Source of the DNA: Candidatus Liptonbacteria bacterium
GTDB taxonomy: Bacteria > Patescibacteriota > Minisyncoccia > UBA6257 > 2-01-FULL-56-20
Reading direction: 5' to 3'
DNA: 64,000 nucleotides
NCBI GenBank assembly: GCA_016867315.1
Contig: VGJV01000003.1
Location: 27,429 to 91,428 of the forward strand
Positions 39,706 to 64,000 of this stretch are shown here, in pieces (positions within the stretch are counted from its first letter, which is position 1; every line of letters starts with the position of its first letter). A program made the translations under genes and the position numbers. Below the pieces are notes generated by a model that was given only the letters and a program-made list of their open reading frames with translations, was not told the origin of the DNA and made no database searches.

Positions 39706-39766
39706 AACCGGGATAGAATTGCGAATTATTCACAATTCCAAATTCCATATTCTAAATTCCTGAGTG

Positions 39767-40386: not shown

Positions 40387-40560
40387 TGAATCCAGAAACT
40401 CGTCAGTGCCAAAATTGTCCCGTAAAATCGCGAGCGAAAAGCGAGCTTATTTTACGCGATCCCGTGATTTTTCGCGAAAGCGAAGAATTCTACGAGACAA
40501 AAGAGCTCGCGACCACGGCGTATAGCCGCGTGGCGGCCACGCCGCTTTACGCGGGATAAA
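40387..40560 (+). pseudogene. degenerate N-terminal remnant of a Cys-rich array paralog (MNPETRQCQNCPVKSRAKSELILRDPVIFRESEEFYETKEL…, 57 codons)
   Basis: Its start MNPET+QCQNC matches the N-terminus of the 61104 paralog (MNPETKNCQACKNPF…) and the CxNC…F…E.E.FY.K pattern. It ends just before the intact paralog at 40566. Confidence 0.4.
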
Positions 40561-42320: not shown

Positions 42321-42321
42321 A

Positions 42322-44034: not shown

Positions 44035-44118
44035 CATAGCCCTTCCCAAAACGTAAAACCTGTGGTAATGTAAAGACAGAAACCGTTCCTTTTAAAGGCC
44101 GAAAAACCATACTATCAA

Positions 44119-44427
44119 ATGGTTATTATCTATACTACGTGTAAGGATACGGCCGAAGCGACAAAGATCGGCAAGGTGATTTTGGACAGCAAATTGGCCT
44201 CTTGCGTGAACATCTGGCCCATCCAGAGCATGTTTCATTGGGAGGGAAAACTCGCTAATCAGCTCGAAGCCGGAATGCTGGTAAAAACCGTAGAACATCA
44301 CACTGCCGAGATCGAAGAATTGATCACGAAAAACCATTCCTATTCCGTACCTTTTATTGGCGTGATGCAGGTGCATCGCCATAATAGAGCGTACCGTGAA
44401 TGGATGAGTTCGGTGGTCAAACCATAA
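44119..44427 (+). CDS. cutA: divalent-cation tolerance protein CutA
   Basis: MVIIYTTCKDTAEA…SCVNIWPIQSMFHWEGK matches the CutA1 family. Confidence 0.8.
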   Translation: MVIIYTTCKDTAEATKIGKVILDSKLASCVNIWPIQSMFHWEGKLANQLEAGMLVKTVEHHTAEIEELITKNHSYSVPFIGVMQVHRHNRAYREWMSSVVKP

Positions 44428-45920: not shown

Positions 45921-45941
45921 AATTAGGCTATTCTTAAAGGA

Positions 45942-47609: not shown

Positions 47610-47622
47610 AGACCGAATAAGT

Positions 47623-47657
47623 CGAAGTCCCGCCATAGCTTTAGCGAAGGAGGATGA
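47623..47657 (+). promoter_or_regulatory. conserved 35-nt intergenic element, copy A (cgaagtcccgccAtagctttagcgaaggaggatga)
   Basis: 34 of 35 positions identical to 53318-53352. It lies downstream of paralog member 3. Confidence 0.5.
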
Positions 47658-47681
47658 AAGCTGCTACCAGCAGGAAGTGGT

Positions 47682-49361
47682 ATGGGACAGAAAATAGAAA
47701 TGAATGCTGAGATAAGAAATTGCAGAAGCTGCAAGCAAGACTTCACGATTGAACCGGACGATTTCACGTTTTATTCAAAAGTTGGAGTGCCCGCGCCGCA
47801 CGATTGTCCGGTGTGTCGTCAGCGTCGGAGGATGATTTTTCGAAATTTCAAGACGCTCTACAAGCGAAACTCCGATCGTTCTTCAAAGCCGATGATCTCG
47901 ATGTATGCTCCGCACGCATCATACAAGGTTTTCACCCACGATGAATGGTGGGCGGACAATTGGGATGCTCGGCAATATGGCCGAGACTTTGATTTTTCGA
48001 GACCATTTTTTGATCAATTTAAAGAACTTCTCCTTGCGGTGCCAAAGATGAATTTGGTAAGTGTTCAAAGTGAAAATTGTGAATACTCTAATTTTGCGTG
48101 GAAGAGCAAAAGCTGCTATCTCGTCTTCGGCTGCGTAGATAACGACACGTGCGCATACGGTCACATTGTTTGGGAATCGAAAGATTCTGTAGATAATCTC
48201 TATCTTTATAAATCTGAGCTTTGTTTTGAATGTGTGGATTGTTTATGGAGCTACGGCTTACTCTGGTCTCAAGAATGCGAGAGTTGCAGCGAGAGTATTG
48301 GGCTTTTCGACTGCCGGAGCTGTACCAACTGCATAGGTTGCGTAGGTCTAAAACAAAAGTCCTACCACATATTCAATCAGCCGGTAAGTAAAGAAGAATA
48401 TGTAAAGTTTTTAGCCGAGCATCCGCTTACCGATCCAAAAACACTTCCATATATTCTGGAAAAACAGCGTGAATTGAGGCGTCAAATACCTCAACGTCAT
48501 TTTTTTGGCTCACATAATAATGCGGTATCAGGAAATCACATATACCATGCAAAAAATGTGCGCTATTCCTTCGACGTAAAGGGAGGAGAAAACTCTAAAT
48601 TTGCATATACGACCCGCAAAGTAGTAGATGGCTATGATGTCGCGTTCTCACCAGACATAGAACTCGCATATCAAGCGCTCACCTCGCGCGGGAACGGGAT
48701 CTACTTCGCGCATATGAATTACGAATGCAGTGATATCTATTATTCGGATAGCTGCCAAAATGTGCATAACGCGTTTGGCTGCGCGGGGCTCAAGGGCGGA
48801 GAATATTTGATTTTGAATAAACAGTATTCAAAAGAAGAATACGAAACACTAGAAGAGAAGATCGTCGAGCATATGAAGAAAACAGGGGAGTGGGGAGAGT
48901 TCTTCCCGGCGACTCTTTCACCGTTCGCATATAACGAGTCCATCGCGCAGGAATATTTTCCACTAAGAAAGGAAGAAGTCCTCGCGTCGGGCTTTCGGTG
49001 GGAAGAAAATATTCCCCGCACTTCCGGACAGGAAACCATCTCTCATGATGCGCTTCCGAAAAATCCTGCCGAATTCGACGCAGATTCACTTTTAAAACAG
49101 GTTTTGAAGTGTGACAGTTGTGGTTACAATTTCCGTTTCACCGCCCAAGAAATTCCATTTTATAAACGATTAAATCTCCCCTTGCCCCGCAATTGTTTTA
49201 ACTGCCGTCACGAACGTCGCATGAAACAGCGAAATATACGTAAGCTATGGGATGGAAGCTGCGCGAAGTGCAATACAAAGTTTCAAACCTCCTACTCTCC
49301 GGAGCAGCAAAAGGAATTTAAAGTTTACTGCGACTCCTGCTATCTTCAAGAAATGGGTTAG
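47682..49361 (+). CDS. Cys-rich paralog family member 4 (559 aa)
   Basis: NCRSCKQDFTIEPDDFTFYSKVGVPAPHDCPVCRQRRR. The second N-terminal ribbon is degenerate (Cys lost). CIGCVGLKQKSYHIFNQPVSKEEY, LILNKQYSKEEYE, SPFAYNESIAQEYFPL and C-terminal CDSCGYNF…CFNCRH…KVYCDSCYLQE. Confidence 0.8.
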   Translation: MGQKIEMNAEIRNCRSCKQDFTIEPDDFTFYSKVGVPAPHDCPVCRQRRRMIFRNFKTLYKRNSDRSSKPMISMYAPHASYKVFTHDEWWADNWDARQYGRDFDFSRPFFDQFKELLLAVPKMNLVSVQSENCEYSNFAWKSKSCYLVFGCVDNDTCAYGHIVWESKDSVDNLYLYKSELCFECVDCLWSYGLLWSQECESCSESIGLFDCRSCTNCIGCVGLKQKSYHIFNQPVSKEEYVKFLAEHPLTDPKTLPYILEKQRELRRQIPQRHFFGSHNNAVSGNHIYHAKNVRYSFDVKGGENSKFAYTTRKVVDGYDVAFSPDIELAYQALTSRGNGIYFAHMNYECSDIYYSDSCQNVHNAFGCAGLKGGEYLILNKQYSKEEYETLEEKIVEHMKKTGEWGEFFPATLSPFAYNESIAQEYFPLRKEEVLASGFRWEENIPRTSGQETISHDALPKNPAEFDADSLLKQVLKCDSCGYNFRFTAQEIPFYKRLNLPLPRNCFNCRHERRMKQRNIRKLWDGSCAKCNTKFQTSYSPEQQKEFKVYCDSCYLQEMG

Positions 49362-49405
49362 AAGCAGTAACTCATCTACTAAGTATGCGATCGCTTAAGT
49401 AGTAG

Positions 49406-51160
49406 ATGAATCTCATAATGAACAATCAAATAAAAAGCTGTCAAAACTGCAAAAAAGACTTTGTGATTGCCCCGGAGGACTTTCAATTTTACGAACGTAT
49501 AAAAGTTCCGGCGCCGACGTTCTGTCCCGATTGTCGTCTCCAAAGACGCATGGCTTTCAGGAACGAACGAAGTTTATATAAAAACATTTGCGCACTTTGC
49601 AAAAAACAGTTTGTTTCGATGTATTCGCCAGACAAACCCTTTATAGTCTACTGCAAAGAATGTTGGTATTCGGATAACTGGGATCCGCTGCAATATGGTC
49701 AGGATTATGATTGGGATAAACCTTTCTTCGAACAGTTTCGGGAATTGATGCTTAAAGTTCCCAGAATCGGGATCATGCACATTCGCAACAATATCAATGC
49801 CGATTATGCGAACTATATCTCCGCAAGCAAGAATATTTATCTTTCTCAGTCCGTTATAGAAGGCTCAGAAAATATTTACTACTCTCGAAGTATAGATCGA
49901 AGCAAAGAAATCTTTGATTGTTTTAATGTCAAAGATTCCGAACGATGCTATGAAAATGTGGATGGTGGGAGAAATTATCGCTCGAAATTTCTGGTACGAT
50001 CGCGGGATTGCATTGATTCCGCATTTCTTTTCGACTGCGTGAACTGTCAGAACTGCATAATGAGCGCGAATCTGCGCAATCGGCAATATGTAATCCGCGG
50101 GAAACAATATTCAAAAGAGGAATATGCCACAGCCTTGGAGAAAATCGAATTCGGTAAACAAAGCGAAATTGAAAAATTAAAACAGGAATTCGAAAATGTG
50201 ATGGAAAAAGCCCTGCATAAATTCGCTAATATCACCAAATCAGTAACCTCAACGGGAGATAATATCGATAATTCTAAAAATGCGGCTTACCTCTTTGACG
50301 CATATAACTGCGAGAATGTGCGGTACGCGGCTAGGGCAATAGGATGTAAAGACTCCTACGATATCATGGGAGGGGCAAATCTCGAACTTGTATATGAACA
50401 GATGGCTGGTGGTTACGGAAGCAGAAACTCCTTAGCGTTAAGTCATGGGGAAGTGACGCTTGAGAGTAACTACACAGACTGGTGTCAAAGTTCCTCAAAT
50501 CTTTTCGGTTGCATATCACTTCGAAAGAAACAGTATTGTATTTTGAATAAGCAATATTCAGAGAAGGAATATAAGGAGTTCTATCCAAAGATTATCGAGC
50601 ATATGAATACAATGCCTTTCGAAGATAGAATGGGAAGAATGTACCGTTACGGAGAATTTTTCCCAATTGAGATTAGCCCATTCGCTTATAACGAGACGAT
50701 CGCAGAAGAATATTTCCTCCTCGCGAAGGAAGAAATTATGAAAAAAGGTTATACGTGGAGAGAACTCGATCCACTTCCGTACGTGCCCACTGTAAAGGGA
50801 AAAGATTTACCCGACGATATTGCGAATGTGGAAAATTCAGCAACCAAAGAATTGATAGAATGCGAAAATTGCAAACGAGTGTATCGAATAGTACAGCCGG
50901 AACTTGAATTTCTTCGGCGCGAACAAATTCCCTTACCGAGAACTTGCCAAGAATGCCGACACGCAAAAAGATTGACTCTCCGCAATCCCCTTAAATTATG
51001 GTCTCGAAAATGTATGTGTGACTATAAGGTATGGAAGAACACTGCGAAGCATGTCCATCATCCGGAAGATCGATGTTCAAACGAATTCGAAACGAGTTAT
51101 TCTCCAGAAAGGCCGGAGGTAATATATTGTGAGCAATGCTATCAAGCAGAAATTAGCTAG
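49406..51160 (+). CDS. Cys-rich paralog family member 5 (584 aa)
   Basis: SCQNCKKDFVIAPEDFQFYERIKVPAPTFCPDCRLQRR, CALCKKQF…CKECW, CQNCIMSANLRNRQYVIRGKQYSKEEY, CILNKQYSEKEYKE, SPFAYNETIAEEYF and C-terminal CENCKRVYRI…CQECRH…VIYCEQCYQAE. Confidence 0.8.
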   Translation: MNLIMNNQIKSCQNCKKDFVIAPEDFQFYERIKVPAPTFCPDCRLQRRMAFRNERSLYKNICALCKKQFVSMYSPDKPFIVYCKECWYSDNWDPLQYGQDYDWDKPFFEQFRELMLKVPRIGIMHIRNNINADYANYISASKNIYLSQSVIEGSENIYYSRSIDRSKEIFDCFNVKDSERCYENVDGGRNYRSKFLVRSRDCIDSAFLFDCVNCQNCIMSANLRNRQYVIRGKQYSKEEYATALEKIEFGKQSEIEKLKQEFENVMEKALHKFANITKSVTSTGDNIDNSKNAAYLFDAYNCENVRYAARAIGCKDSYDIMGGANLELVYEQMAGGYGSRNSLALSHGEVTLESNYTDWCQSSSNLFGCISLRKKQYCILNKQYSEKEYKEFYPKIIEHMNTMPFEDRMGRMYRYGEFFPIEISPFAYNETIAEEYFLLAKEEIMKKGYTWRELDPLPYVPTVKGKDLPDDIANVENSATKELIECENCKRVYRIVQPELEFLRREQIPLPRTCQECRHAKRLTLRNPLKLWSRKCMCDYKVWKNTAKHVHHPEDRCSNEFETSYSPERPEVIYCEQCYQAEIS

Positions 51161-51221
51161 CGATTTATGAAATAAGATTTATGATTTAAGAATCATACAT
51201 AAATCCTGAATCGTAAAATCA

Positions 51222-51518
51222 ATGCATTTCCGAATCGACAACGTAGGCGATAATATGAACACCGTCATGCGCCGGATAGGGTACACGCCCATCCGGTGGA
51301 CGGAAAAAGGGGAGTTGAACTGCGTCCGGCCGCTTCAAGGGCAGGACTACCCTCGTTTTCATGCGTATGTAAAAGAAGAACGCTTCACGCTAATTTTCAG
51401 CCTTCACCTGGATCAAAAGCGTCCTTCCTACGGCAATGAAACCGCACACAGTGGCGAGTATGAAGGAGAAATAATTCAAGAAGAAGCACGGAGGATTCAA
51501 AAGATCTTGAGCTTCTAG
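51222..51518 (+). CDS. hypothetical protein (98 aa) embedded in the paralog array
   Basis: ORF only. It sits between members 5 and 6 and ends 3 nt before member 6 starts. Confidence 0.35.
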   Translation: MHFRIDNVGDNMNTVMRRIGYTPIRWTEKGELNCVRPLQGQDYPRFHAYVKEERFTLIFSLHLDQKRPSYGNETAHSGEYEGEIIQEEARRIQKILSF

Positions 51519-51521
51519 AAA

Positions 51522-53309
51522 ATGGAGAACAGAATTTCAGAAAATCGGGATTGCCAAAATTGCAAACAGCAATTCACGATCGCTCCGGAAGATTTCGCAT
51601 TCTACGAAAAAATCCAGGTTCCACCGCCCACGTGGTGTCCGCGCTGCCGCAACATCCGACGGATGGCTTGGAGAGAAGAGGGCCATGCACTCTATCGGGA
51701 CACGTGCAAGCTTTGCGGCAAAAATATTATCACCATTCATGCGCCGGGACCGTTTACGATATATTGCCGAGAATGTTACAGGTCGGATAAATGGGACCCG
51801 TTGAGTTATGGGAAAGAATACGATTTTAGCATGCCCTTTTTCGCTCAATACCGGAAACTCATGGAAGAAGTGCCTCGACCGGCCCTCACCGGAATAAATA
51901 TCGTAAACAGCGAATTTACGCACGGCTGCAAGGGCGTAAAAAACTGTTATTTCTGTTTCATGAGCTATTTTTCCGAAGACTCGCAGCATAGTTATTTACT
52001 TCTTCTCTCTCGCCACGCGTATGATTCATACGTAACTGATAACTCAGACCAAGTGTACGAAACTCTCCATTCGAACCGGCTTTATAAGGTCGCGTTTGGA
52101 TACTTTGCAGATGACTGCTTAGAGTCCACATTTTTATATGATTGCATAGGCTGTTCGGATTGCTTCGGTTGTGTAAATCTCCGCAAACAAAAATATTGCC
52201 TTTGGAATAAACAACTTTCAAAGGAGGAGTATCGAAAACAAAAAGAATATTGGGATCTTGGGAGTTTTACTCGGTTAGAGGAAGCAAAGAAGAAGTTTCG
52301 GGAATTATATCTCTCGCTTCCGCATAAATATGCGCATGTAGTAAGCAGCCAAAATGCCACCGGAGATATTATCAGAGATACAAAAGACTGTGAGAAATGT
52401 TTTTCCGCCCTTGATGGCGTGCAAAATTGCAAATATGTCTATGTGGGGGGATTGAATTTAAAAGATAGCTACGATGTGAGCGGAGGAGGGGATACTGCCT
52501 CTCTTCTCTACGAGATTCTTGGTACAACGGAAGCACAGCGCTGCTTTTTTGCGAACGGCAGTTCCGGTTCGCAGGATATTATGTATTGCGATTGGGTAAA
52601 TGATTCCTCTCACGTTCTTGGAAGTATTGCCTTGAAACATAAAAAGTATTGCATCTTGAATAAGCAATATGAGAAGGAGGAGTATGCCCAAATGAAGGCC
52701 AAAATAATCGAGCATATGCACTCGATGCCATATGTGGACAAAAAAGGACGAGTCTATAAATTTGGAGAATATTTTCCCACCGAGCTTTCCGCATATGGAT
52801 ATAATGAAACATTCGGATTCTTCTGGTACCCCAAAACCAAAGAAGAAGTTCTAGAAGAAGGATGGAACTGGCATGATCCTCAGAAAAAGTCTTATGAGGT
52901 GACATTGAGACTCGAGGACATCCCTGACCATATTAGAGACATTCCCGATTCCATACTCAAAGAAACCATTGAGTGCGCACATGGAGGAGCGTGCAACGAA
53001 CAATGTACCACCGCGTTTCGGATCACTCCCGAGGAACTCGCCTTTTATAGAGACATGCGGATTGCCCTGCCTAGACTTTGCCCCAATTGCAGAAACTTCC
53101 AAAGAATTCACTGGCGAAATGGCTATGATTTATTTAAACGGAAATGCATGTGCGTCGGCATGCAGAATAAGGATGAGAATAAGTATAAAAATACTGCATC
53201 TCACTTTCATGGAGATGGCTTTTGCCCCAACGAATTCGAAACCACCTTCTCTCCTAAGCAACCGGAAATAATATATTGCGAAGCATGCTACCGCCAAGAA
53301 TTTATATAG
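51522..53309 (+). CDS. Cys-rich paralog family member 6 (595 aa)
   Basis: DCQNCKQQFTIAPEDFAFYEKIQVPPPTWCPRCRNIRR, CKLCGKNI…CRECY, CFGCVNLRKQKYCLWNKQLSKEEY, CILNKQYEKEEYAQ, and C-terminal ECAHGGACNEQCTTAFRITPEELAFYRDMRIALPRLCPNCRNFQR…IIYCEACYRQE. It is most similar to member 7. Confidence 0.8.
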   Translation: MENRISENRDCQNCKQQFTIAPEDFAFYEKIQVPPPTWCPRCRNIRRMAWREEGHALYRDTCKLCGKNIITIHAPGPFTIYCRECYRSDKWDPLSYGKEYDFSMPFFAQYRKLMEEVPRPALTGINIVNSEFTHGCKGVKNCYFCFMSYFSEDSQHSYLLLLSRHAYDSYVTDNSDQVYETLHSNRLYKVAFGYFADDCLESTFLYDCIGCSDCFGCVNLRKQKYCLWNKQLSKEEYRKQKEYWDLGSFTRLEEAKKKFRELYLSLPHKYAHVVSSQNATGDIIRDTKDCEKCFSALDGVQNCKYVYVGGLNLKDSYDVSGGGDTASLLYEILGTTEAQRCFFANGSSGSQDIMYCDWVNDSSHVLGSIALKHKKYCILNKQYEKEEYAQMKAKIIEHMHSMPYVDKKGRVYKFGEYFPTELSAYGYNETFGFFWYPKTKEEVLEEGWNWHDPQKKSYEVTLRLEDIPDHIRDIPDSILKETIECAHGGACNEQCTTAFRITPEELAFYRDMRIALPRLCPNCRNFQRIHWRNGYDLFKRKCMCVGMQNKDENKYKNTASHFHGDGFCPNEFETTFSPKQPEIIYCEACYRQEFI

Positions 53310-53494: not shown

Positions 53495-55477
53495 GTGGCG
53501 ATACATAACATCAAACATCCCTACAAAAAGGTGGCTCCAACTGCCCCGTTGTGGCATAATTTGGAAAGCGCAGACGCGCAACCCAAAAAAATGGGCTTCG
53601 AACCAGAGAAAGACGTCATCTATTTCGGCCGTACCGATTTCCGGAACACCAACCGGCTTTTTGGCATCAAAAGGAATGATCGCCGTCAACATGTCTACGT
53701 TGTCGGTAAAACCGGTACCGGTAAAAGTGTTCTTTTGAATAATATGATTGTGCAGGATATGGCGAACGGCGAAGGACTTGCCGTCGTCGATCCGCACGGA
53801 GAATTGGTGGAAGGGATCTTGGAAAAAGTCCCCGAGGATCGCATTGATGATGTAATTTATTTCAACCCGGCGGATATCGACTCTCATATTGGTTTTAATG
53901 TACTCGAACTTCCCGATCCGAAATACAAACACCTGGTGGCTTCGGGACTCATGGGCATTTTCACTAAGATTTGGGAGAATGTCTGGTCTGCAAGAATGGA
54001 ATATATCATGAATAACGCCATATTGGCGTTGTTGGATACTCCCGGTTCCACACTTTTAGGAATCACGAGAATTCTCGTAGACAAAGATTACCGACAGCAG
54101 ATCATTGCAAACATCAAAGACCCGGTGGTAAAGGCGTTCTGGGTTCATGAATATGAAACATGGCGTGACCAGTTCCGAAACGAAGCTATTGCTCCGATTC
54201 AAAACAAAGTAGGGCAGTTCCTTTCGACCGCACTCGTACGAAATATTGTGGGGCAGCAGCGGAGCACGATCGATATTTTCAATCTCATGAACGAAGGGAA
54301 AATATTTCTCATAAACGTCTCTAAGGGAAGAATCGGGGAAGATAACTCTGCGCTTTTGGGAGCCATGCTCATCACAAAGATGCAGCTTTCTGCAATGGAA
54401 CGTATCCGCGTACCCGAAGAAGAACGCGTGGATTTCTTCCTTTATGTCGACGAGTTTCAGAATTTTGCGACTGATTCATTTGCTGGGATATTGTCCGAAG
54501 CCAGAAAATATCGCTTGGATCTTATCCTCGCACATCAATACATAGGACAATTAGTAACTGATGTCTCGACTAAAGTGCGGGATGCGATCTTCGGAAACGT
54601 AGGAACGATGATCATCTTCCGTGTGGGCGCGACCGATGCGGAATTTTTGGAAAAAGAATTTGAGCCGGAATTCACTCCTCAAGATATAGTAAACCTCCCG
54701 AACTACGCGATTTACTTGAAGCTTATGGTGGATGGAGTAACCTCAAGACCTTTTTCAGCCTCGACACTTCCTCCTTTTAAGGTGGCGACCTCCGAAATGA
54801 CGAAGGAAATGATTATTAAAAACTCGCAAAAGCGATATGCGAGGCCCAGGGGAGTGGTAGAGGAAGAAATAAACCGATGGAGTGGCGTAATGACTACCGC
54901 AGAAGGTGCCCCCACGCTTCCCACGCAAAGTAAGGAGGGCGCATATCTCGCGACGTGCTCTTCCTGCGGTAAAACCACTACGGTTCCATTTGCTCCGGAT
55001 CCATCACGCCCAATTTACTGTAAAGACTGTCTGAATCGCGTGAAGGCCGGAGAGGTATTGCCAGTAAAACTCATGCCAAGATCGAAAAAAGTTCGGGATT
55101 CTTCGAAAGATGCGCTCGCAGCGGTAGGTATCGAATTTGCAGTAGAACCCAAGAGCGAAGAAGAGGTAGAAGAAGAAACCACTCCTGAGGCAGAAACCGA
55201 AGAGGCTGCCGCAACCACTCCTGCTGAAATTACAAAAGCCGAACAAGAAACAGAAAAATCGGAAGAAGCAGCGGAATCTACCCCCGAAGAAACCGCTCCG
55301 AAAGCCGAAGAGGCCAAACCGCAAACGAAAGGAATTTCGCTTTCTGAACTCAAACCCCCGAAGAAGACTCCAAAAATGAAAGAGCGCACTGCTCCGGAAA
55401 TAGATGTGGAGGAATTACGCAAATCCATCGCGGCTTCCCTTGATCAAATTTTAAGCAAAGACGAAGAGAAAAAATGA
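53495..55477 (+). CDS. soluble TrwB/TraD/VirD4-type P-loop ATPase, copy 2, with a C-terminal zinc ribbon and an acidic low-complexity tail
   Basis: Paralog of 38239..39705 (LFGIKRNDRRQHVYVVGKTGTGKSVLL…VVDPHGELVEG; Walker B FFLYVDEFQNF; LILAHQYIGQL). The extra C-terminus carries CSSCGKTTTVPFAPDPSRPIYCKDC, then an E/T/A/P-rich tail. Confidence 0.7.
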   Translation: MAIHNIKHPYKKVAPTAPLWHNLESADAQPKKMGFEPEKDVIYFGRTDFRNTNRLFGIKRNDRRQHVYVVGKTGTGKSVLLNNMIVQDMANGEGLAVVDPHGELVEGILEKVPEDRIDDVIYFNPADIDSHIGFNVLELPDPKYKHLVASGLMGIFTKIWENVWSARMEYIMNNAILALLDTPGSTLLGITRILVDKDYRQQIIANIKDPVVKAFWVHEYETWRDQFRNEAIAPIQNKVGQFLSTALVRNIVGQQRSTIDIFNLMNEGKIFLINVSKGRIGEDNSALLGAMLITKMQLSAMERIRVPEEERVDFFLYVDEFQNFATDSFAGILSEARKYRLDLILAHQYIGQLVTDVSTKVRDAIFGNVGTMIIFRVGATDAEFLEKEFEPEFTPQDIVNLPNYAIYLKLMVDGVTSRPFSASTLPPFKVATSEMTKEMIIKNSQKRYARPRGVVEEEINRWSGVMTTAEGAPTLPTQSKEGAYLATCSSCGKTTTVPFAPDPSRPIYCKDCLNRVKAGEVLPVKLMPRSKKVRDSSKDALAAVGIEFAVEPKSEEEVEEETTPEAETEEAAATTPAEITKAEQETEKSEEAAESTPEETAPKAEEAKPQTKGISLSELKPPKKTPKMKERTAPEIDVEELRKSIAASLDQILSKDEEKK

Positions 55478-56148
55478 GATTTGATATTCTCTCGATTTTC
55501 CCCGACATATTTTCCTCGTATGTAAGCGAGTCGCTCTTTGCGCGGGCAATAAAGAAGAGTCTTCTCCAAATCAAAATTCATGACCTCCGCAAATGGAGTA
55601 GAGAGCGACATCGCAAGGTAGATGATCGTCCTTTCGGAGGCGGACCGGGAATGGTATTCCAGGTGGAACCAATACATCGAGCCGTCGAAGCGATTCAGCG
55701 CCAAACAAAAAAATTAAAGCGTCGGCGGATAATTCTTTTTTCCACTCGAGGTAAAAAGCTGGATGCAAACACTGCGAAGCGTCTTTCGAAATATGATCAG
55801 CTTACGCTCATCTGCGGCCGCTATGAGGGAGTGGACGAAAGAGTGGCCGACCACATTGCCGATGAAGAAATCTCAATAGGGGATTATGTACTCTCCGGAG
55901 GAGAGCTTCCTGCGCTGGTACTCATGGAGGCGATAAGCCGTTTCAAAAAAGGATTTCTTGGCACCCGCGAGTCTCTCGAAGAAATAAAAGGTTTCTATCC
56001 CGTATACACCCGTCCCGCCTCATTTACTCCTAAATCCGGCAAGCGCTCCTGGAAAGTACCCGAGGTGCTCCTCCGTGGTAACCATGCCGCAATCGATGTC
56101 TGGCGCCGAAAATACGGCGAAGATGCAAGTAGGAGAATACACGCTTAA
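55474..56148 (+). CDS. trmD: tRNA (guanine37-N1)-methyltransferase TrmD
   Basis: MRFDILSIFPDIF…, GGGPGMV and the SPOUT knot region. Confidence 0.85.
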   Translation: MRFDILSIFPDIFSSYVSESLFARAIKKSLLQIKIHDLRKWSRERHRKVDDRPFGGGPGMVFQVEPIHRAVEAIQRQTKKLKRRRIILFSTRGKKLDANTAKRLSKYDQLTLICGRYEGVDERVADHIADEEISIGDYVLSGGELPALVLMEAISRFKKGFLGTRESLEEIKGFYPVYTRPASFTPKSGKRSWKVPEVLLRGNHAAIDVWRRKYGEDASRRIHA

Positions 56149-57553
56149 GCTTCTGCTTGGTTTTCTGACTGGAGCTGCGGTGGCTGCTTTTGGCATACCC
56201 ACCGAAGGAATAGTAATCGGAGGACTTCTTGCGATAATCTGGGTTCAGTATTTCAAACAAATAAAATTAGTGATGCTCTGCCTCGCCGGCGGAGCTTTTA
56301 TTTTTGGGATTCTTTATTTCCATCTCTACGCGCAGGGGAGTGTAACATTCTTGCGCCTCCCTCAAGATTCTCCGGCAACTTTCGAAGGATTGGTGGTTGA
56401 AGAGCCGAGAAACGCGAATCGCTTTGCTAGATTTACCATAGAGCTTCAGGAACCTTATCGAGGAAAAATAGGAGTCATAGATGAAGCTTCGGGAATTCAA
56501 TACGGAGATGTACTTCGTCTAGAAGGCAGAATCCGGATTGAAAATGGAGAGATTATAGCTAAATTTCCCAAAACAGAACGTCTCGCGCGCAATAAAGGAC
56601 ATTGGCTGAAGGAACAGCTTCTCGCAGTAAAGAGGGGAGTAATCCAAAGTTTTGAGCGCGCGCTTCCGCCCGACGAGGCCGCTCTTCTCTCCGGCATCAC
56701 GCTCGGCGCCCGAAGCTCCTTTTCTCCAAAACTTAAAGAGGATATGGCAATTTCAGGGACTATTCACATTGTCGCAGTCTCAGGCTACAACATAAGCATT
56801 CTCGCGATTGTATTGGGGAGCGCTGCGGCCCTTTTTATGAGAAGGCGCATCGCAATTTGGGTCGCAGTGATAGGAATATTGCTCTTCGTGGGAATCGTAG
56901 GAAGCGAAGCTTCGGTGGTGCGAGCAGCCATTATGGGAATACTCGGCCTCCTCGCGGAAGGCACGGGGCGACCGAACAATCAGGCCTATGCCATTGCGCT
57001 TGCCGCTTCACTCATGGTGGCATGGGACCCCACTATCATCCGCAACGACCTGGGTTTTATGCTTTCCTTTTTAAGCCTCTTAGGAGTGACATACCTCTCT
57101 CCCGCGCTTCAATCGCTTTGGAGAAATGCAAAAGATAAAGGTTTTTTCGCCTGGAAGGAAAACTTGGATACCACGCTCGGAGCGCAACTGGGCGTCTTGC
57201 CGGTGCTCCTCCTCACCTTCGGGAGCGTCTCCGCCACTTCGCTCCTCGCGAATATTCTAATAATTCCCTTAATTCCCATTACTATGGGAGTGGGATTTCT
57301 TTTAGGAATTATCCAATGGCTTTCTCCCTTGCTTGCGTTCCCGGTTACAGAAATAGCAAGATTGCTTACCGGCTATGAAATATGGGTAATTCAATTTTTT
57401 GCGGATACGGCGATCCCAATCGGAAATTTCTTTGCCTACCCGGTAGTCATAATCGCATATTATCTCTTCTTCGCTGCGTTTATCGCATATCGGAATAAAA
57501 AAGGTGAAATAAAACTCACCGAACCCTCTGCAATAAAAAATCTATGGTCCTAA
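56123..57553 (+). CDS. comEC: ComEC/Rec2 family competence membrane protein (membrane channel portion)
   Basis: DUF4131-like N-terminus plus the ComEC core (LLSGITLGARS…, ISGTIHIVAVSGYNISIL) and multiple TM helices. The ORF track starts at 56075, and M 56123 (MQVGEY…) is the likelier start. Confidence 0.7.
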   Translation: MQVGEYTLKLLLGFLTGAAVAAFGIPTEGIVIGGLLAIIWVQYFKQIKLVMLCLAGGAFIFGILYFHLYAQGSVTFLRLPQDSPATFEGLVVEEPRNANRFARFTIELQEPYRGKIGVIDEASGIQYGDVLRLEGRIRIENGEIIAKFPKTERLARNKGHWLKEQLLAVKRGVIQSFERALPPDEAALLSGITLGARSSFSPKLKEDMAISGTIHIVAVSGYNISILAIVLGSAAALFMRRRIAIWVAVIGILLFVGIVGSEASVVRAAIMGILGLLAEGTGRPNNQAYAIALAASLMVAWDPTIIRNDLGFMLSFLSLLGVTYLSPALQSLWRNAKDKGFFAWKENLDTTLGAQLGVLPVLLLTFGSVSATSLLANILIIPLIPITMGVGFLLGIIQWLSPLLAFPVTEIARLLTGYEIWVIQFFADTAIPIGNFFAYPVVIIAYYLFFAAFIAYRNKKGEIKLTEPSAIKNLWS

Positions 57554-58431
57554 AAACCAATCTCCAAAAATTTCTGCTCCCGAGTATCGCCTCACTCCTT
57601 ATACTGAATGTGTTCGTATGGCACTCCGTATGGAAGGGGCTCCCGGATCAAAATCCTTCGCTCCATTTCCTGGATGTAGGTCAGGGAGATGCCACCCTCC
57701 TCAAGCTTCCGGGCAATATATCAATTTTGACAGATGCAGGTCCAGACCGAAAGGTAGTGCAGGCAGTAAATGAACTATTGGGTCTAGATCGGCGCTATAT
57801 TGATATAGGAATCATCACTCATCCACAGCGAGACCATTATGGAGGATTTATCGATCTACTCAAGCACTTCAAATTTGGAGCAATAATTACGAATGGGCGC
57901 AATGCGGATACGGGAAAAGAAGCGTGGCGGGAATTTTTAGCCACCATACAGTCTGAAAATATCCCGCATATCGTACTGCGGGCAGGAGATCGAATTCGCT
58001 ATGCGAATAATAAAATAGATTTTTTATCTCCCGGACCCAATCTTTTGAAAAGCAAGGAGTTAAATGACACCAGCTTTGTAAATCGAATCCAAACTCCGGC
58101 TTTTTCCGCGCTCCTCACGGGAGATATAGGCATAAAAGTGGAACAATTTCTCTTAAAATCGGGGATCTCTCTCAAAACCGACATCTTAAAAGTCGCGCAC
58201 CATGGGTCTAAGTTTTCTTCAAACAAAGTGTTTTTAAATGCGGCGAATCCACAGATTGCACTGATTGGAGTGGGCAAAAATTCATACGGCCATCCCACAA
58301 ATGAAGTACTGAGCAGACTGAGAGCTGCCTCAGTAGGGGCGGTTCTCCGAACCGATGAGCGAGGCACAGTGAGCATTATCCCGCAAGGCGAGAAGCTTCT
58401 CATTTTCACACACCGCGCCAAAGGAGAGTAG
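57544..58431 (+). CDS. MBL-fold metallo-hydrolase corresponding to the ComEC C-terminal beta-lactamase-like domain, encoded as a separate overlapping ORF
   Basis: HxHxDH-like motif (THPQRDHYGG) and VAHHGSKFSS typical of ComEC's lactamase domain. It overlaps the ComEC membrane ORF by 10 nt in another frame. Confidence 0.65.
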   Translation: MVLKTNLQKFLLPSIASLLILNVFVWHSVWKGLPDQNPSLHFLDVGQGDATLLKLPGNISILTDAGPDRKVVQAVNELLGLDRRYIDIGIITHPQRDHYGGFIDLLKHFKFGAIITNGRNADTGKEAWREFLATIQSENIPHIVLRAGDRIRYANNKIDFLSPGPNLLKSKELNDTSFVNRIQTPAFSALLTGDIGIKVEQFLLKSGISLKTDILKVAHHGSKFSSNKVFLNAANPQIALIGVGKNSYGHPTNEVLSRLRAASVGAVLRTDERGTVSIIPQGEKLLIFTHRAKGE

Positions 58432-58446
58432 GGTATAATAAAGAAC

Positions 58447-59976
58447 ATGACACTCCTCATTCGAAACGTTCGCATCGTGGGAGAAGCTCGCGCATCTGAA
58501 GAGCGGAGCGATATATTCGTGCAAAACGATATTATTTCCGCTATTGGCAGCCTGGGAAATAAAAAAGCAGATGAAGTGATTGATGGCCAGGGAACATATC
58601 TCGCTCCAGGTTTTATCGATGTAAATACCGACTCCGATCACTATCTTACGCTCTTCGACAACCCGGCACAGGAAGATTTCTTGAAGCAGGGAGTAACTAC
58701 CATATTCGGCGGAATGTGCGGAGCCTCCTTGGCCCCGCTTCTCTATGGCAGCTTAGAATCCATTCGAAAATGGGGGGATATTCATTGTGTAAATGTAGGC
58801 TGGCAATCCTTAGGGGAACTTCTCGACATTCTAAGCTCGCGGGGTTTAGGAGTGAATTTCGGCACATTGATCGGCCATTCCACTATTCGGCGCGCATTAG
58901 CAGGAGAAAACTTTAGAAATCTCACCAAAAATGAGCTTAAGGTATTTATATCCACACTAGAACGAGGAATGTCGGAAGGGGGGTTCGGGCTTTCCTCCGG
59001 CTTGAGTTATGTCCACGCTCGAGAAACTTCATACGCTGAATTGAAAGCTCTAGGAGAGGTGGTGCAGAAACGTAATGGCGTATACGCCACGCATCTTCGA
59101 AAGTCCGGAGAAGACCTTTTAAATTCTCTCGAAGAAACGGTAAAACTACGCAAAGAAACCGGAGTAAAAACTATCATAAGTCACTTCCAGCCCTTCATGG
59201 GTACGGAAGAACTGTACGACACGGCCTTAAAAAATCTCGAAGAACTTTCTACAGACCGCGCGGTGTATTTCGACACCTATCCTTTCGATGCAAGTGTGGT
59301 ACCGCTCTATACGCTTTTGCCCCTGTGGGCACAAGAAACTAATTTGGAAACCATGGCCGCAAATTTGAAAGATGCATGGAAGCGAAAGAAAATTATTAAA
59401 GAATTGCCGGAACTCTCTGGGGACGGGCTCATCGTGGCAAGCGCCCCAGGCCACGAACCTTTGATAGGGAAAAACATCGAGACCTTAAAAGAAATGTACG
59501 GCGTCTCTCTAGGCGCAGAAGCTCTGCTGCAACTCATGCGCGCCACAGATCTCCGAGCAATCGTGTTTTATAAGAATATTGCTGCCAATCTTTTGACACA
59601 AGCCCTTGCACATCCGCGTTCTCTCATCGCGACGAATGCCGCGAGTATTAAAGAGGGCAGACAGATTGGGATGCTCAAACCCGAGCGCGCCACGAACACC
59701 TTCCCAAAGTTTCTCGATATAGTAAGCCTCAAGCGGCTCATGCCCCTCGAAAGCGCCATCCAAAAAATCACAAAAACTCCTGCCGAACTCTTGGGAATTA
59801 AGGGCAGGGGAGAAATTAAGGAAGGCAACTACGCTGATCTGGTAGGGTTTTCCTGGAAAGAAGGGGGAGCCTCGGCCACCGAAATTAAATTCGTGGTAGT
59901 GAACGGAACGATAGCCGTCCAAAATGGAATTTCTAAAGAAACGCTCAGGGGGAGAATATTAAAACACCAATCATAA
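58447..59976 (+). CDS. amidohydrolase family protein (N-acyl-D-amino-acid deacylase/D-aminoacylase-like)
   Basis: N-terminal beta-sandwich plus metal-binding region (IRNVRIVGE…GQGTYLAPGFIDVNTDSDHY) and amidohydrolase fold length. Confidence 0.65.
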   Translation: MTLLIRNVRIVGEARASEERSDIFVQNDIISAIGSLGNKKADEVIDGQGTYLAPGFIDVNTDSDHYLTLFDNPAQEDFLKQGVTTIFGGMCGASLAPLLYGSLESIRKWGDIHCVNVGWQSLGELLDILSSRGLGVNFGTLIGHSTIRRALAGENFRNLTKNELKVFISTLERGMSEGGFGLSSGLSYVHARETSYAELKALGEVVQKRNGVYATHLRKSGEDLLNSLEETVKLRKETGVKTIISHFQPFMGTEELYDTALKNLEELSTDRAVYFDTYPFDASVVPLYTLLPLWAQETNLETMAANLKDAWKRKKIIKELPELSGDGLIVASAPGHEPLIGKNIETLKEMYGVSLGAEALLQLMRATDLRAIVFYKNIAANLLTQALAHPRSLIATNAASIKEGRQIGMLKPERATNTFPKFLDIVSLKRLMPLESAIQKITKTPAELLGIKGRGEIKEGNYADLVGFSWKEGGASATEIKFVVVNGTIAVQNGISKETLRGRILKHQS

Positions 59977-61074
59977 ATGTTTGGAGCTCGGGGCCACCGT
60001 CCAGATTATTTCCTCATGGCCTTGGTGCTTGTATTGGTTGCTTTTGGATTAGTGATGCTCGTGAGTGCCTCCTCAGACCTTGGAAAGATTAAATTTAACG
60101 ACAGCTATTACTATCTGAAGCATCAGCTGATATATGGATTTTCGCTGGGCCTCCTCGGCTTTTTTCTTGCGGCAAATATTCGCTACACGATCTATAGAAC
60201 ATGGGCCTTTCCGCTGCTCCTCCTCACCATCGCACTCCTTATTCTTATTTTTACCCCATTGGGAGTAGAAGCGAACGCCGCCACTCGCTGGCTAAAGATC
60301 GGGCCATTTCGATTCCAACCAGCGGAGCTTCTGAAAATCACCTTCATAATCTACATTGCCGCCTGGCTCAGCCGGCCCAATGCAAAGCGTTCCGCCTCCT
60401 TTTTAAAAGGCCTTTTGCCATTTCTAATAATCTCGGGCGCCATATGTGCGCTCCTCATCATGCAGCCCGCAACGAGCACCGTGGCTATCCTTCTCGGAGC
60501 GGCCCTCGTGGTGTACTTCTTAAGCGGAGCTTCGCTTAAATATATTTTTGGCACAATTCTTGTCGCGGCGATTTGTGTGGGGTTGATTATTTACGCCACA
60601 CCATACCGCCGCGATCGAATTCTGGGATTTTTGAATCAAGACCAGCACCAAGAAACCAAAAATTATCAGGTGCGTCAGGCGCTTACCGCGATCGGAGCGG
60701 GTGGGCTCACCGGAGCAGGATACGGCCGCTCAGTGATCAAAAACAGCTTGCCCGCCTCAGTAGATGACTCTATATTTGCCATAGTAGGCGAAGAATTCGG
60801 CTTCTTAGGCAGTGGAGCCCTCGTAGCCCTTTTTGGAGCTCTCGTATTACGCCTTTTCTGGCTAGCCCGCCGCGCTCCCGATCTTTTTGGGCGGCTCATG
60901 CTCGTAGGTTTTGGCACGGTTATCGCGTTCCAGTCGCTCGTGAACATGGGTTCCATTTCGGGAATTTTGCCCCTTACCGGCGTCCCTCTGCCGTTTGTGA
61001 GTTATGGAGGAACCGCCCTCGCGGTATTCATGACCATGGCCGGAATTGCAACAAATGTGTCGAAATACACATAG
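59977..61074 (+). CDS. ftsW: SEDS family peptidoglycan glycosyltransferase FtsW/RodA
   Basis: 10 TM helices with conserved SEDS motifs (…IGPFRFQPAELLKI…, SDSIFAIVGEEFGFLG, PLPFVSYGGTA). Confidence 0.8.
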   Translation: MFGARGHRPDYFLMALVLVLVAFGLVMLVSASSDLGKIKFNDSYYYLKHQLIYGFSLGLLGFFLAANIRYTIYRTWAFPLLLLTIALLILIFTPLGVEANAATRWLKIGPFRFQPAELLKITFIIYIAAWLSRPNAKRSASFLKGLLPFLIISGAICALLIMQPATSTVAILLGAALVVYFLSGASLKYIFGTILVAAICVGLIIYATPYRRDRILGFLNQDQHQETKNYQVRQALTAIGAGGLTGAGYGRSVIKNSLPASVDDSIFAIVGEEFGFLGSGALVALFGALVLRLFWLARRAPDLFGRLMLVGFGTVIAFQSLVNMGSISGILPLTGVPLPFVSYGGTALAVFMTMAGIATNVSKYT

Positions 61075-61103
61075 AATCTAGGAGTTAGAAAATAGAATCT
61101 AGA

Positions 61104-62882
61104 ATGAACCCAGAAACAAAAAATTGTCAGGCCTGCAAAAATCCGTTCACGATCGAGCCGGAAGATTTGATATTTTACGAGAAAATCAAAGTACCACCTC
61201 CCACATTCTGTTGGCGATGCCGCATGCAAAGACGAGATAACTGGAGAAATGAGCGTTTGCTCTATAAGAGAAAATGTAATGTCCCAGGACATAGTGAAGA
61301 TATTATTTCCACGTTTGCTCCGGATGTGCCATGGGTGGTGTATGACCAAAAGGAATGGTGGAGCGATTCATGGAATTCGCTTGCGTATGGAAGAGAATAT
61401 AACTTCTCTAAACCATTTTTCTCCCAATTTAACGAGCTACTCCATAAAGTGCCGATTCCTGCTGTAGAGAATGAGAATCCGGTAAACAGCGAATACTGTA
61501 ATGCGGCCGCGGGCAACAAAAACTGCTATCTGTGCTTCGCTGCCGGATGGAACGAAAATGTAGCTTACTCAAACAAAATCGGGACAAGTAAGGATTCTCT
61601 TGATTGCTACATGGCTTCAAAAGTTGAACTTGGTTATGAGAATGTAAACTGCCACGATTCGTATCGGTTACTGTGGAGCGTGAACTCCAAAAACTGCCGC
61701 GATTCGCACTTTCTTTATAACTGCCGGAATTGTTCGAATTGCTTCGGGTGTGCAAATCTCGTCTCAAAGTCCTACCACATTTGGAACCAACCGTATTCTA
61801 AAGACGAGTACTTCGTGAAACTCACTGCACTCGACCTCTCCACACGAGAGAGAATTGAGGGACTCAAAGAAAAATTTTATAAAGAGATTGTTGCGAATAT
61901 GGTTCATAAATACGCGAGTATTCTCAACTCTTCAAACTGCACAGGCGACAACATTAATAATTCAAAAAATGTGGAAGTTTCATTTGATGTACTGACAGGA
62001 AGTGAAGATTCAAAGTTTCTCCAGCATTGCATGGAACTAAAAGACGCTTACGACAACATGGGGGCTTATAGATACAACCTTTCGTATGAAAATGTAAACG
62101 TGAATGTAGGCAATAATAATATTGCCACGATTGCGACCTATAACGCTCGCGCCAATCAATATTCGTATCACTGTCACGGTTGCAGCAATATTTTCGGGTG
62201 TATCGGCCTTCGCAGTAAAGAACATTGCATTCTGAACCGCCAGTATTCCAAAGAGGAATATGAACAACTGGTACCCCAGATCATAAAACACATGAACGAA
62301 ATGCCGTATGTAGATGCCGCCGGAAGGAAATACGGTTATGGAGAATTTTTTCCTGCGGAGATTTCTCCGTGGGCATATAACGAAACAATCGCGCAGGAAT
62401 ATTTTCCACTAAGCGAATCCGAAGCTCAAGCTAAAGGATTCCGCTGGAAAAAATCCGAAGGAAAGCATTACAACGTCACCATCGCTGCAGATAAAATTCC
62501 CGACCGAATCGCGGATGCACAGGATTCAATAGTAAATGAGGTAATCGAATGTGCGCATAAAGGTATCTGCAATGAACAATGCACCACCGCTTTTAAACTC
62601 ATCGACGCAGAGCTTCAATTTTATCGAAAGCTGAATCTTCCCATCCCGAATCTTTGTCCGAATTGCCGCCACTATGCACGTCTCAAGCAAAGAAATCCGC
62701 TCATGCTATGGAAAAGAAAATGTCGCTGCGCAGGCACTGCTTCCGATAACGAAGTCTATCACAATACCACCAAACACTTCCACGAAGCAGGGGAATGTCC
62801 CAATGAATTTGAGTCGAGCTACGCCCCCGAAAGACCAGAACTTATCTACTGCGAACAATGCTATCAAGCAGAAGTGAATTAA
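61104..62882 (+). CDS. Cys-rich paralog family member 7 (592 aa), located between ftsW and murG
   Basis: MNPETKNCQACKNPFTIEPEDLIFYEKIKVPPPTFCWRCRMQRR, CSNCFGCANLVSKSYHIWNQPYSKDEY, CILNRQYSKEEYEQ, SPWAYNETIAQEYFPL and C-terminal ECAHKGICNEQCTTAFKLIDAELQFYRKLNLPIPNLCPNCRH…LIYCEQCYQAE. Confidence 0.8.
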   Translation: MNPETKNCQACKNPFTIEPEDLIFYEKIKVPPPTFCWRCRMQRRDNWRNERLLYKRKCNVPGHSEDIISTFAPDVPWVVYDQKEWWSDSWNSLAYGREYNFSKPFFSQFNELLHKVPIPAVENENPVNSEYCNAAAGNKNCYLCFAAGWNENVAYSNKIGTSKDSLDCYMASKVELGYENVNCHDSYRLLWSVNSKNCRDSHFLYNCRNCSNCFGCANLVSKSYHIWNQPYSKDEYFVKLTALDLSTRERIEGLKEKFYKEIVANMVHKYASILNSSNCTGDNINNSKNVEVSFDVLTGSEDSKFLQHCMELKDAYDNMGAYRYNLSYENVNVNVGNNNIATIATYNARANQYSYHCHGCSNIFGCIGLRSKEHCILNRQYSKEEYEQLVPQIIKHMNEMPYVDAAGRKYGYGEFFPAEISPWAYNETIAQEYFPLSESEAQAKGFRWKKSEGKHYNVTIAADKIPDRIADAQDSIVNEVIECAHKGICNEQCTTAFKLIDAELQFYRKLNLPIPNLCPNCRHYARLKQRNPLMLWKRKCRCAGTASDNEVYHNTTKHFHEAGECPNEFESSYAPERPELIYCEQCYQAEVN

Positions 62883-62984
62883 AAGAATGCTACAATTCTG
62901 AAGTAGCCTAGCATTTAAGAATCACGGAGTGTTAATTGAAAATTGGGAGTAATTCGCAATTCACAATTCTAAATTCTCAATTCC

Positions 62985-64000
62985 ATGAATAAAATTCGAA
63001 TCGCACTCACGGGCGGCGGGAGCGGGGGACACGTATACCCCCTGCTTGCAATTGCGGAAGAGCTCCAGCGGATCGGCACGGCACAAAAAGCGAATCTGGA
63101 AATAGTACACTTTGGCCCGAAAGACGCATTTGCGCCGTTATTTACTAACGCGGGAATAAAGCGCCGCTCAATAATGGGCGCGAAGCTTCGCAGCTATTCC
63201 ACGCTTCAAAATATCCTCGACGTTCCAAAGTTTTTCATAGGAATCTTTCAGGCCTTTTTAAAGATTTTTTGGTATATGCCCGACGTGATTTTTTCGAAAG
63301 GTGGTCCCGGCGCCTTCCCCGTAGTACTTGCAGGCTGGTTTTATAAAATTCCGATACTCATCCACGAATCCGATGCCATCCCCGGAGCCACGAATATCCT
63401 ATCGTCCCATTTTGCCACGCGAATCGCAATTACATTCGAGGAAGCCAAACGTTATTTTGACCCGACCAGAACCGCTACGGTAGGCAATCCCGTACGGCCC
63501 TGGCTTATTAAAGACAAACCCGAACCGAAAGTTGCGAAACAACTCCTCGGATTCAACCCCGAAGCTCCGCTCACGGTAATACTAGGAGGTTCACAAGGCT
63601 CTCAAAGAATCAACGAATTTATAGTCGCAAATCTTCCCACAATCCTTAAAGAAACACAACTTTTTCATCAAACAGGTACGAACAATTTTTCTGAGATTGA
63701 AGCCCTCTCCAAGGCGGCGTTCCCAAGTGCCACGTCTTATAAAGTGGTGGCGTATATAACTGAAGAGCTCAAAAATGTACTGGCAGCTGCTGATTGCATA
63801 GTGGGACGCGCAGGAAATGGCACGATCTCAGAAGCTGCTGCATTTGGAAAACCCATGATCCTCATCCCTCTGCCGGAATCCGCGAATGATCATCAACGGG
63901 CAAACGCGCGAGAGTTTAAAAAAGTAGGTGGGGGAATAATCATCGAAGAAGCGAATCTTCTCCAGGAAATTTTCGTGAGTGCCTTGAAAAAAATACTCAC
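62985..64000 (+). CDS. murG: undecaprenyldiphospho-muramoylpentapeptide beta-N-acetylglucosaminyltransferase MurG (5' part; runs off the window)
   Basis: MNKIRIALTGGGSGGHVYPLLAIAEEL glycine-rich N-terminus and a C-terminal GT-B domain with a conserved G.G…E motif. Not in the ORF track because it is truncated by the window end. Confidence 0.8.
   Translation, partial: MNKIRIALTGGGSGGHVYPLLAIAEELQRIGTAQKANLEIVHFGPKDAFAPLFTNAGIKRRSIMGAKLRSYSTLQNILDVPKFFIGIFQAFLKIFWYMPDVIFSKGGPGAFPVVLAGWFYKIPILIHESDAIPGATNILSSHFATRIAITFEEAKRYFDPTRTATVGNPVRPWLIKDKPEPKVAKQLLGFNPEAPLTVILGGSQGSQRINEFIVANLPTILKETQLFHQTGTNNFSEIEALSKAAFPSATSYKVVAYITEELKNVLAAADCIVGRAGNGTISEAAAFGKPMILIPLPESANDHQRANAREFKKVGGGIIIEEANLLQEIFVSALKKIL

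Follow-up and report, generated by a model that had tools for sequence, protein, structure and literature searches.

Ancestry of a Cysteine-Rich Paralog Located Between ftsW and murG in a Candidatus Liptonbacteria Genome

The canonical order of the bacterial cell-wall (dcw) gene cluster is ...mraY-murD-ftsW-murG-murC..., and the locus studied here raises the question of how, and how long ago, a further gene came to stand between two of these neighbors. The locus lies in a 64-kb stretch of contig VGJV01000003.1 from Candidatus Liptonbacteria (hereafter the window, meaning the whole stretch analyzed). The intervening gene, labelled X (open reading frame (ORF) 61104–62882, + strand), encodes a soluble protein of 592 amino acids (aa) with 31 Cys and 17 His, and a protein identical to it is already listed as hypothetical in a metagenome-assembled genome of Candidatus Liptonbacteria. 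An earlier note on this DNA had described X as a Cys-rich paralog inserted between ftsW and murG and as the seventh member of its family, and the ORF, Pfam, and BLAST data agree with that description. The comparisons reported here make it probable that X is a vertically inherited, constrained member of an old orthologous subfamily, which reached its position by a derived junction insertion in a small sub-clade.

The identity of the two flanking genes is clear. The upstream gene, ftsW (59977–61074, +), encodes a 365-aa protein of the SEDS lipid II flippase/polymerase family that matches Pfam PF01098 (FTSW_RODA_SPOVE) over its full length at 4.8e-87, and the downstream gene, murG (GT28), is present as its 5' part (62985–64000, +) and runs off the window end, with both GT28 domains of MurG found in the ORF from 62985 (PF03033 at 5.5e-27 and PF04101 at 4.5e-32). 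The ORF of X is intact and starts with ATG, and its G+C content (GC) is similar to that of the surroundings, at 0.45–0.47. A spacer of 29 nucleotides (nt) containing AGGAG separates ftsW from X (61075–61103), and one of 102 nt, with an AATTC-periodic element at 62941–62984, separates X from murG (62883–62984). No terminator-like site was predicted in either spacer, and a promoter scan gave results no better than shuffled sequence. Because all three genes lie on the + strand with short spacers and no terminator-like site between them, co-transcription of X with ftsW and murG is plausible.

The ftsW-murG junction in related genomes

Relatives were sampled by FtsW, independently of X, which provided 80 metagenome loci with FtsW identities of 33–65%; FtsW-containing loci from a genome scan anchored on X brought the total to 84, and 72 of these were long enough to be informative. 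The statement that ftsW and murG are normally adjacent was borne out by this synteny comparison, since murG directly followed ftsW in 61 of the 72 informative loci. Family genes stood between the two in six loci, pepA followed ftsW in one, and something else did so in four. The distance from ftsW to murG was −4 to 372 nt in the adjacent loci and 1.9–4.6 kb at the occupied junctions of the window and of loci L090, L001, L007, and L005. Direct adjacency held in every distant FtsW clade (33–56% identity) and likewise in the clades that are sister to the window's group, and about 10 adjacent loci shared with the window the whole synteny of a VirD4-like ATPase (type IV coupling protein, T4CP), trmD, comEC, a metallo-beta-lactamase (MBL) gene, an amidohydrolase gene, and ftsW. 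The block order trmD-comEC-MBL-amidohydrolase-ftsW was also present in L001, L005, L007, and L164. Because adjacency prevails in the 61 loci, including the approximately 10 with the window's full block, the ftsW-murG adjacency is ancestral and X is a derived insertion.

The surrounding order had been called an otherwise conserved dcw order, which holds for the ftsW and murG pair and not for the rest. The pair is kept here as in the canonical order, and beyond it the window holds no dcw gene: MraY had no match, the genes upstream are an amidohydrolase gene, a split comEC, and trmD, and the remaining dcw genes (mraY, mur ligases, ftsA/Z) were not found in conserved order around the pair. Unlike the canonical cluster, the dcw cluster of this lineage is reduced to (mraY)-amidohydrolase-ftsW-murG, and in the window's sub-clade, again in contrast to the canonical arrangement, one to three family genes split ftsW from murG.

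The opposite polarity, in which ftsW-X-murG was the ancestral arrangement of Paceibacteria and X was lost wherever ftsW and murG are now adjacent, would be compatible with family genes found beside a reduced dcw block in distant loci. In L041 a family gene lies directly upstream of mraY-ftsW-murG, and in L056 and L080 one lies near the head of the same block with one to three ORFs between; in addition, a second subfamily, X'A, occupies the junction in two FtsW clades. However, this history would need many independent and precise losses among the adjacent loci, which include distant as well as sister clades, and on the tree an occupied junction appears at two tips or in small clades, so that we regard this history as improbable. 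The arrangement ftsW-X-murG is ancestral for the immediate sub-clade and not for the wider lineage.

Orthologs of X and the age of the array

In a neighbor-joining tree of FtsW, the window grouped with L001, L005, and L007, and all four carry family genes in the junction. The ftsW-proximal gene of the junction is the ortholog of X in each of the three relatives, with tblastn identities of 74% (L001), 72% (L005), and 56% (L007), and in L164 two additional family genes stand between an ortholog of X (76%) and murG. The number of junction copies is thus one in the window, two in L001, L005, and L007, and three in L164. Orthologs in other genomes are 56–76% identical to X, compared with 36–44% for the six window paralogs, which align with X end-to-end over ~590 aa (E 1e-115 to 1e-177). 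The copies of L001 and L005 grouped with X at 100% bootstrap, and no window paralog was sister to X.

The FtsW orthologs of L001, L005, and L007 are 72–74% identical to that of the window, and the housekeeping neighbors in L001 and L005 show identities of 72% (FtsW), 66–68% (MurG), and 68–69% (TrmD). In these two loci, X is therefore conserved about as much as, or more than, its housekeeping neighbors. Among X orthologs, pS was 0.78–0.91, which is saturated, and pN was 0.15–0.30; a dN/dS ratio was not computable for these orthologs owing to the saturation of dS. Taken together, these comparisons show a derived, old insertion that is common to the sub-clade and under purifying selection.

On another reading, X would be a recent duplicate of an array member, perhaps the sixth, that jumped into the ftsW-murG operon as part of an actively spreading family. 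X is indeed a full-length paralog located 7.8 kb from the last array member, which ends at 53309 (the earlier estimate was 8 kb), and most relatives have murG next to ftsW. Nevertheless, X is no recent duplicate, because its orthologs are closer to it than its paralogs are, the same junction is shared by four other genomes, and the synonymous sites between orthologs are saturated; the X clade, moreover, excludes all window paralogs at 100% bootstrap. A recent origin is accordingly highly improbable, and the paralog phylogeny places X beside its sister copies in L001 and L005 and not as an offshoot of the array.

The proposed affinities of X within the window did not hold either. The closest in-window paralog is 49406–51160 (44.3%, 506 bits) and not the sixth member, 51522–53309, which comes second (42.3%, 494 bits) by a small difference. 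The second proposed relative, a remnant at 40387–40560 (+), is a 57-codon stub with a family-type N-terminus (MNPETRQCQNC...FYETK) that then diverges; its likeness to the family is limited to the start MNPETRQCQNC and a degenerate FYETK motif, and it had no tblastn match at E < 0.01. It probably represents what is left of the 5' end of an array member that has decayed. The start of the stub is near the family consensus and is therefore uninformative about X specifically.

The main array itself comprises six paralogs on the + strand, delimited by BLAST to 40566–53309 (40566–42320, 42316–44034, 45942–47609, 47682–49361, 49406–51160, and 51522–53309), and is interrupted by a leucyl aminopeptidase gene, pepA (44400–45920, NCBIfam). 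These six also have closer relatives in other genomes (50–71%) than in their own (31–44%). Every window paralog grouped with genes of other genomes, and three of the six did so with 100% bootstrap support. Because relatives in other genomes are closer than those in the same genome, the window paralogs are ancient subfamilies and not products of ongoing duplication, and the same comparison speaks against X as a recent copy.

The X'A subfamily, supported by 100% bootstrap, accounts for the second junction copy of L001 and of L005 and for the third one of L164. Its closest window gene reaches no more than 44% identity, and X'A was either lost from the window lineage or kept outside the window.

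Some further observations concern the arrays. In paralog 42316–44034, the conserved C-terminal motif HFHGEHPCPNRF...ILYCEECYNSEVA (window 43900–44034) is coded in another frame than the rest, with the change at or near a run of five G at ~43915–43925; the frameshift may be genuine or may stem from an assembly error in the homopolymer. In the relatives L044, L069, L095, and L099, pepA lies elsewhere than in the window, between the array and the long ATPase gene described below, and in L095 pepA directly follows ftsW in place of murG. Runs of at least 10 family genes were observed in L010 and L008 (the same 56-kb contig), L014, and L165, where they take up a sizeable portion of genomes that are themselves very small.

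Movement of family genes within the neighborhood

The position of X-clade genes varies among relatives. In L006 an ortholog follows the VirD4-like gene and precedes comEC, in L016 one stands between trmD and comEC, and in L002 and L004 orthologs lie several kb upstream of mraY-amidohydrolase-ftsW. The junction in turn has received different members of the family: in a second FtsW clade (L090 and L107) family genes also separate ftsW from murG, the gene of L090 being X'A, and the second junction copy of L007 belongs to yet another subfamily. Across genomes, at least three subfamilies occupy the junction. Extra small ORFs were also seen beside the family genes in the ftsW-murG interval of L005 (7328–7957, 209 aa) and L007 (9893–10369, 158 aa), a sign that the accretion of genes may be tolerated there. 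As to mechanism, we infer that family genes reshuffle over short ranges within a neighborhood of ~25 kb that in this lineage ancestrally comprised the array as well as the reduced dcw block. The proposal that the family spreads by duplication and insertion can thus be kept for relocation, which involves several subfamilies and junctions, and has to be given up for recent duplication, in view of the closer orthologs, the 100% bootstrap, and the saturation reported above.

A further possibility considered was that X arrived through a mobile element or phage, as cargo of a transposon or integrative element directed at the ftsW-murG spacer, given that the junction is recurrently occupied by different subfamily members and contains the additional small ORFs of L005 and L007. 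No flanking inverted repeats or target-site duplications were found around X, however, and the repeats detected in its region are internal and reflect the protein's own duplication. No transposase, integrase, or recombinase was present among the neighbors of X, no tblastn match was obtained in 50,697 GenBank phage records, PHROGs gave no match for X, and a single fragment, at a contig end, matched in IMG/VR. The GC does not depart from that of the surroundings, and such delivery is very unlikely.

The history that we favor, in which X descends vertically from a derived insertion, would run as follows. In the wider lineage, the main array stands immediately upstream of VirD4-like ATPase-trmD-comEC-amidohydrolase-ftsW-murG, with ftsW and murG abutting. 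Then, in the common ancestor of the window, L001, L005, L007, and L164, which make up a small Liptonbacteria-like sub-clade, one family member would have moved a few kb into the space between ftsW and murG, presumably through a rearrangement that was short in range, involved no transposon, and started from the adjacent array. The moved copy would then have founded a satellite array, now of one to three copies, of which the window represents the one-copy form, and X would be co-transcribed with ftsW and murG. The family may act together with the soluble VirD4/TraD-like ATPases that flank the arrays.

Several points weigh against parts of this history. The copy of L007 joins the X clade with 41% bootstrap, which makes its orthology less secure, and the trees are neighbor-joining trees of single genes, with gain and loss judged by parsimony. 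X'A holds this junction in two FtsW clades that are distinct from each other, L001/L005/L164 and L090, a pattern that could reflect an older single insertion followed by several losses instead of two gains. Co-transcription of X with its neighbors, plausible as it is, is read from the gene layout, and the functional link to the ATPases, which is tentative, is read from gene neighborhood. Finally, no curated family, solved structure, or paper supports a biochemical role for the family.

A different account gives the position itself a function: the family, or this subfamily, would serve division or the growth of the cell envelope, perhaps by forming a beta-solenoid scaffold in the cytoplasm, and would have been recruited into the ftsW-murG operon for co-expression. 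The occurrence of family genes at the junction in two clades and against mraY-ftsW-murG in others, the compact one-strand layout, the conservation of X at the level of FtsW, and a predicted beta-solenoid core compatible with polymer or scaffold roles are all in line with this idea. On the other hand, the main arrays were ancestrally near the block anyway, and the proximity may be inherited synteny; orthologs of X occupy non-dcw positions in L002, L006, and L016; and X showed no similarity to bactofilins or known divisome proteins. We consider an adaptive position rather unlikely. The vertically inherited insertion amounts to an old, stable, and lineage-specific break of one of the most conserved gene pairs of bacteria, and as such is of modest interest.

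The protein family, its ATPase neighbors, and other features of the window

X lacks a signal peptide as well as any transmembrane or other hydrophobic segment. When 1.84 billion cluster representatives were searched with a profile, 5,114 matched at E ≤ 1e-3 and 2,275 at E ≤ 1e-30, and the family amounts to ~5,100 clusters at 50% identity. The homologs of X number more than 5,600 and are all from Patescibacteria where named, mostly from the Parcubacteria/Paceibacteria group. Sampled loci carry 7 to >14 family copies per contig. Searches of X against Pfam, NCBIfam, PADLOC, and PHROGs gave nothing above threshold, and PDB sequence searches with X alone and with a 50-sequence profile gave no match. 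No description of the family was found in the Parcubacteria, Patescibacteria, or candidate phyla radiation (CPR) literature on cysteine-rich, zinc ribbon, or treble clef proteins. From its sequences, this would be an undescribed, Paceibacteria-specific, multigene family of soluble proteins predicted to bind several zinc ions.

The AlphaFold2 (AF2) model of X, built on a 50-sequence alignment, was a confident one, at a pLDDT of 84 and a pTM of 0.86. The predicted architecture is a zinc module, two beta-solenoid halves, a linker, and a second zinc module, because profile-profile comparison detected two internal duplications: the N- and C-terminal modules are homologous (hhalign probability 99.2%, E 2e-19), as are the solenoid halves S1 and S2 (99.9%, E 9e-31). 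The predicted N-terminal zinc module is treble-clef-like and covers aa 1–100 (61104–61403), with C8, C11, C36, and C39 invariant. S1 (aa 120–235, 61461–61808) ends in NCRNCSNCFGC...YSKDEY, and S2 (aa 265–395, 61896–62288) ends in CHGCSNIFGC...YSKEEY. The predicted C-terminal zinc module of 115 aa (aa 478–592, 62535–62879) has C483, C493, C518, C521, and C540 invariant, with H485, C489, H523, C542, H558, H560, C565, C583, and C586 conserved in at least 90%. All four regions lie on the + strand. Thirty-one columns, including 11 Cys, are invariant in the family and all are present in X, and the invariant or near-invariant Cys and His fall in both end modules and in the CxxCxxCxxC run that ends S1. 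Hidden Markov models (HMMs) of the four domains (N, C, S1, and S2), run against all ORFs of 166 loci, retrieved family members or fragments only, with no other architecture.

The end modules resemble zf_Tbcl (PF13451), zf_Tbcl_2 (PF23477), and the CxxC-x17-CxxC model TIGR04272 in that they likewise carry paired CxxC motifs. Among 50 family members tested at E up to 0.1, PF13451 was detected in 20 (best 1e-5) and PF23477 in 5 (best 3.6e-5); X itself scored weakly against zf_Tbcl, at 14.4 bits and E 0.039 against a cut-off of 24. The family modules are ~100 aa long, with extra Cys/His sites and a conserved RNxxxLYKRKC, and the Pfam zf_Tbcl domains are 37–48 aa. For the solenoid part, comparators are the curlin CsgA-like repeats (8c50), the beetle antifreeze protein TmAFP (1ezg), left-handed beta-helix acyltransferases, and gamma-carbonic anhydrases; no close structural relative of X was found. 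An identification of X as a left-handed beta-helix (hexapeptide) transferase or gamma-carbonic anhydrase was rejected, with no hexapeptide profile match and no close fold match. Nor do the data point to a 4Fe-4S ferredoxin-type site, as the motif is CxxCxxCxxC (C207, C210, C213, and C216) and not CxxCxxCxxxCP, and no Fer4 Pfam match was obtained.

The array is bounded on both sides by VirD4/TraD-like ATPases that are paralogous to each other. The upstream one (38239–39705, +) is a short P-loop ATPase of 488 aa with matches to TrwB_AAD_bind and T4SS-DNA_transf, and the downstream one (53495–55477, +) is a long ATPase of 660 aa with a zf_Tbcl_2 / CxxC-x17-CxxC finger and an acidic tail. This zf_Tbcl_2 match is bona fide, and the finger was not detected by the four family domain HMMs in the 166 loci. 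By eye, the tail motif SYAPERPELIYCEQC of X resembles PFAPDPSRPIYCKDC of the neighboring T4CP-like ATPase. Neither flanking ATPase has a transmembrane or other hydrophobic segment that could form an N-terminal membrane anchor, which sets them apart from canonical type IV coupling proteins. Orthologs of the short ATPase stand next to arrays elsewhere (74–85% identical), and the long ATPase stands at the array boundary in many loci. Of the 79 loci anchored on X, 29 have a VirD4-like gene, in 24 of them no more than 1.5 kb away from a family copy, and five loci carry both ATPase types as the window does; loci with ATPase-flanked arrays include L008, L021, L025, L057, L082, and L165. PADLOC gave no match for X or paralog 49406–51160, and the flanking ATPases match its mad8 and HerA models via the P-loop ATPase core only. 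The long ATPase also matches phrog_5156 (unknown function) at 2e-61 and PADLOC mad8 at 1e-15.

In Patescibacteria, VirD4-like genes mostly do not lie beside virB4 (148 of 5,713 do), and the role of these "orphan" VirD4-like ATPases was left open by the survey that reported them, which makes no mention of the X family (PMC12102498). The VirB2 pilin paralogs of Patescibacteria likewise form divergent arrays in tiny genomes near VirD4-like genes, but the proteins of the X family, unlike these pilins, are large, soluble, and predicted to be zinc-rich (PMC12102498). The orphan ATPases may be partners of the X family. From gene neighborhood and domain type, it is possible, if doubtful, that the family proteins serve the flanking ATPases as zinc-dependent binding partners or substrates, perhaps on nucleic acid. 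A broader proposal, that the family and the two soluble ATPases form an undescribed Paceibacteria-specific cytoplasmic machinery repeatedly recruited beside or into mraY-ftsW-murG through a functional coupling to envelope growth, division, or DNA uptake and not through inherited synteny alone, seems less likely still. With seven family genes of ~1.75 kb in the 64-kb window and more than 10 on some contigs, CPR genomes devote a visible share of their coding capacity to one uncharacterized, putatively zinc-rich family outside curated databases, and the arrays, which are often found beside orphan VirD4-like ATPases, offer biochemistry a concrete and testable pairing. The uncharacterized family and its ATPase partners are a more promising lead than the dcw location.

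The segment linking the array to ftsW is a conserved block on the + strand (55474–59976) that consists of trmD (55474–56148), the comEC N-terminal part (56075–57553, Competence/DUF4131), the comEC MBL part (57544–58431), and an Amidohydro_3-like amidohydrolase gene of 509 aa directly upstream of ftsW (58447–59976). In the window comEC is thus split into two overlapping ORFs, and the same split was seen in L001 and L164. The amidohydrolase gene directly precedes ftsW in most related loci, down to 27–32% identity, and in L002 and L004 its place is after mraY and before ftsW; the gene seems to belong to the reduced dcw block as a lineage-specific component. Downstream of murG, relatives carry gltX and an M23 peptidase gene.

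Rfam gave no match over 38–64 kb. An identical 17-mer, TTCACAATTCYAAATTC, occurs in two AATTC-periodic intergenic elements of the window, at 39716–39762 and 62941–62984, and was absent from all 163 related loci checked. The first element closely follows the short ATPase gene, and the second closely precedes murG, where it includes TTCACAATTCTAAATTC at 62960–62976; the chance expectation for the shared 17-mer is ~0.04 matches.

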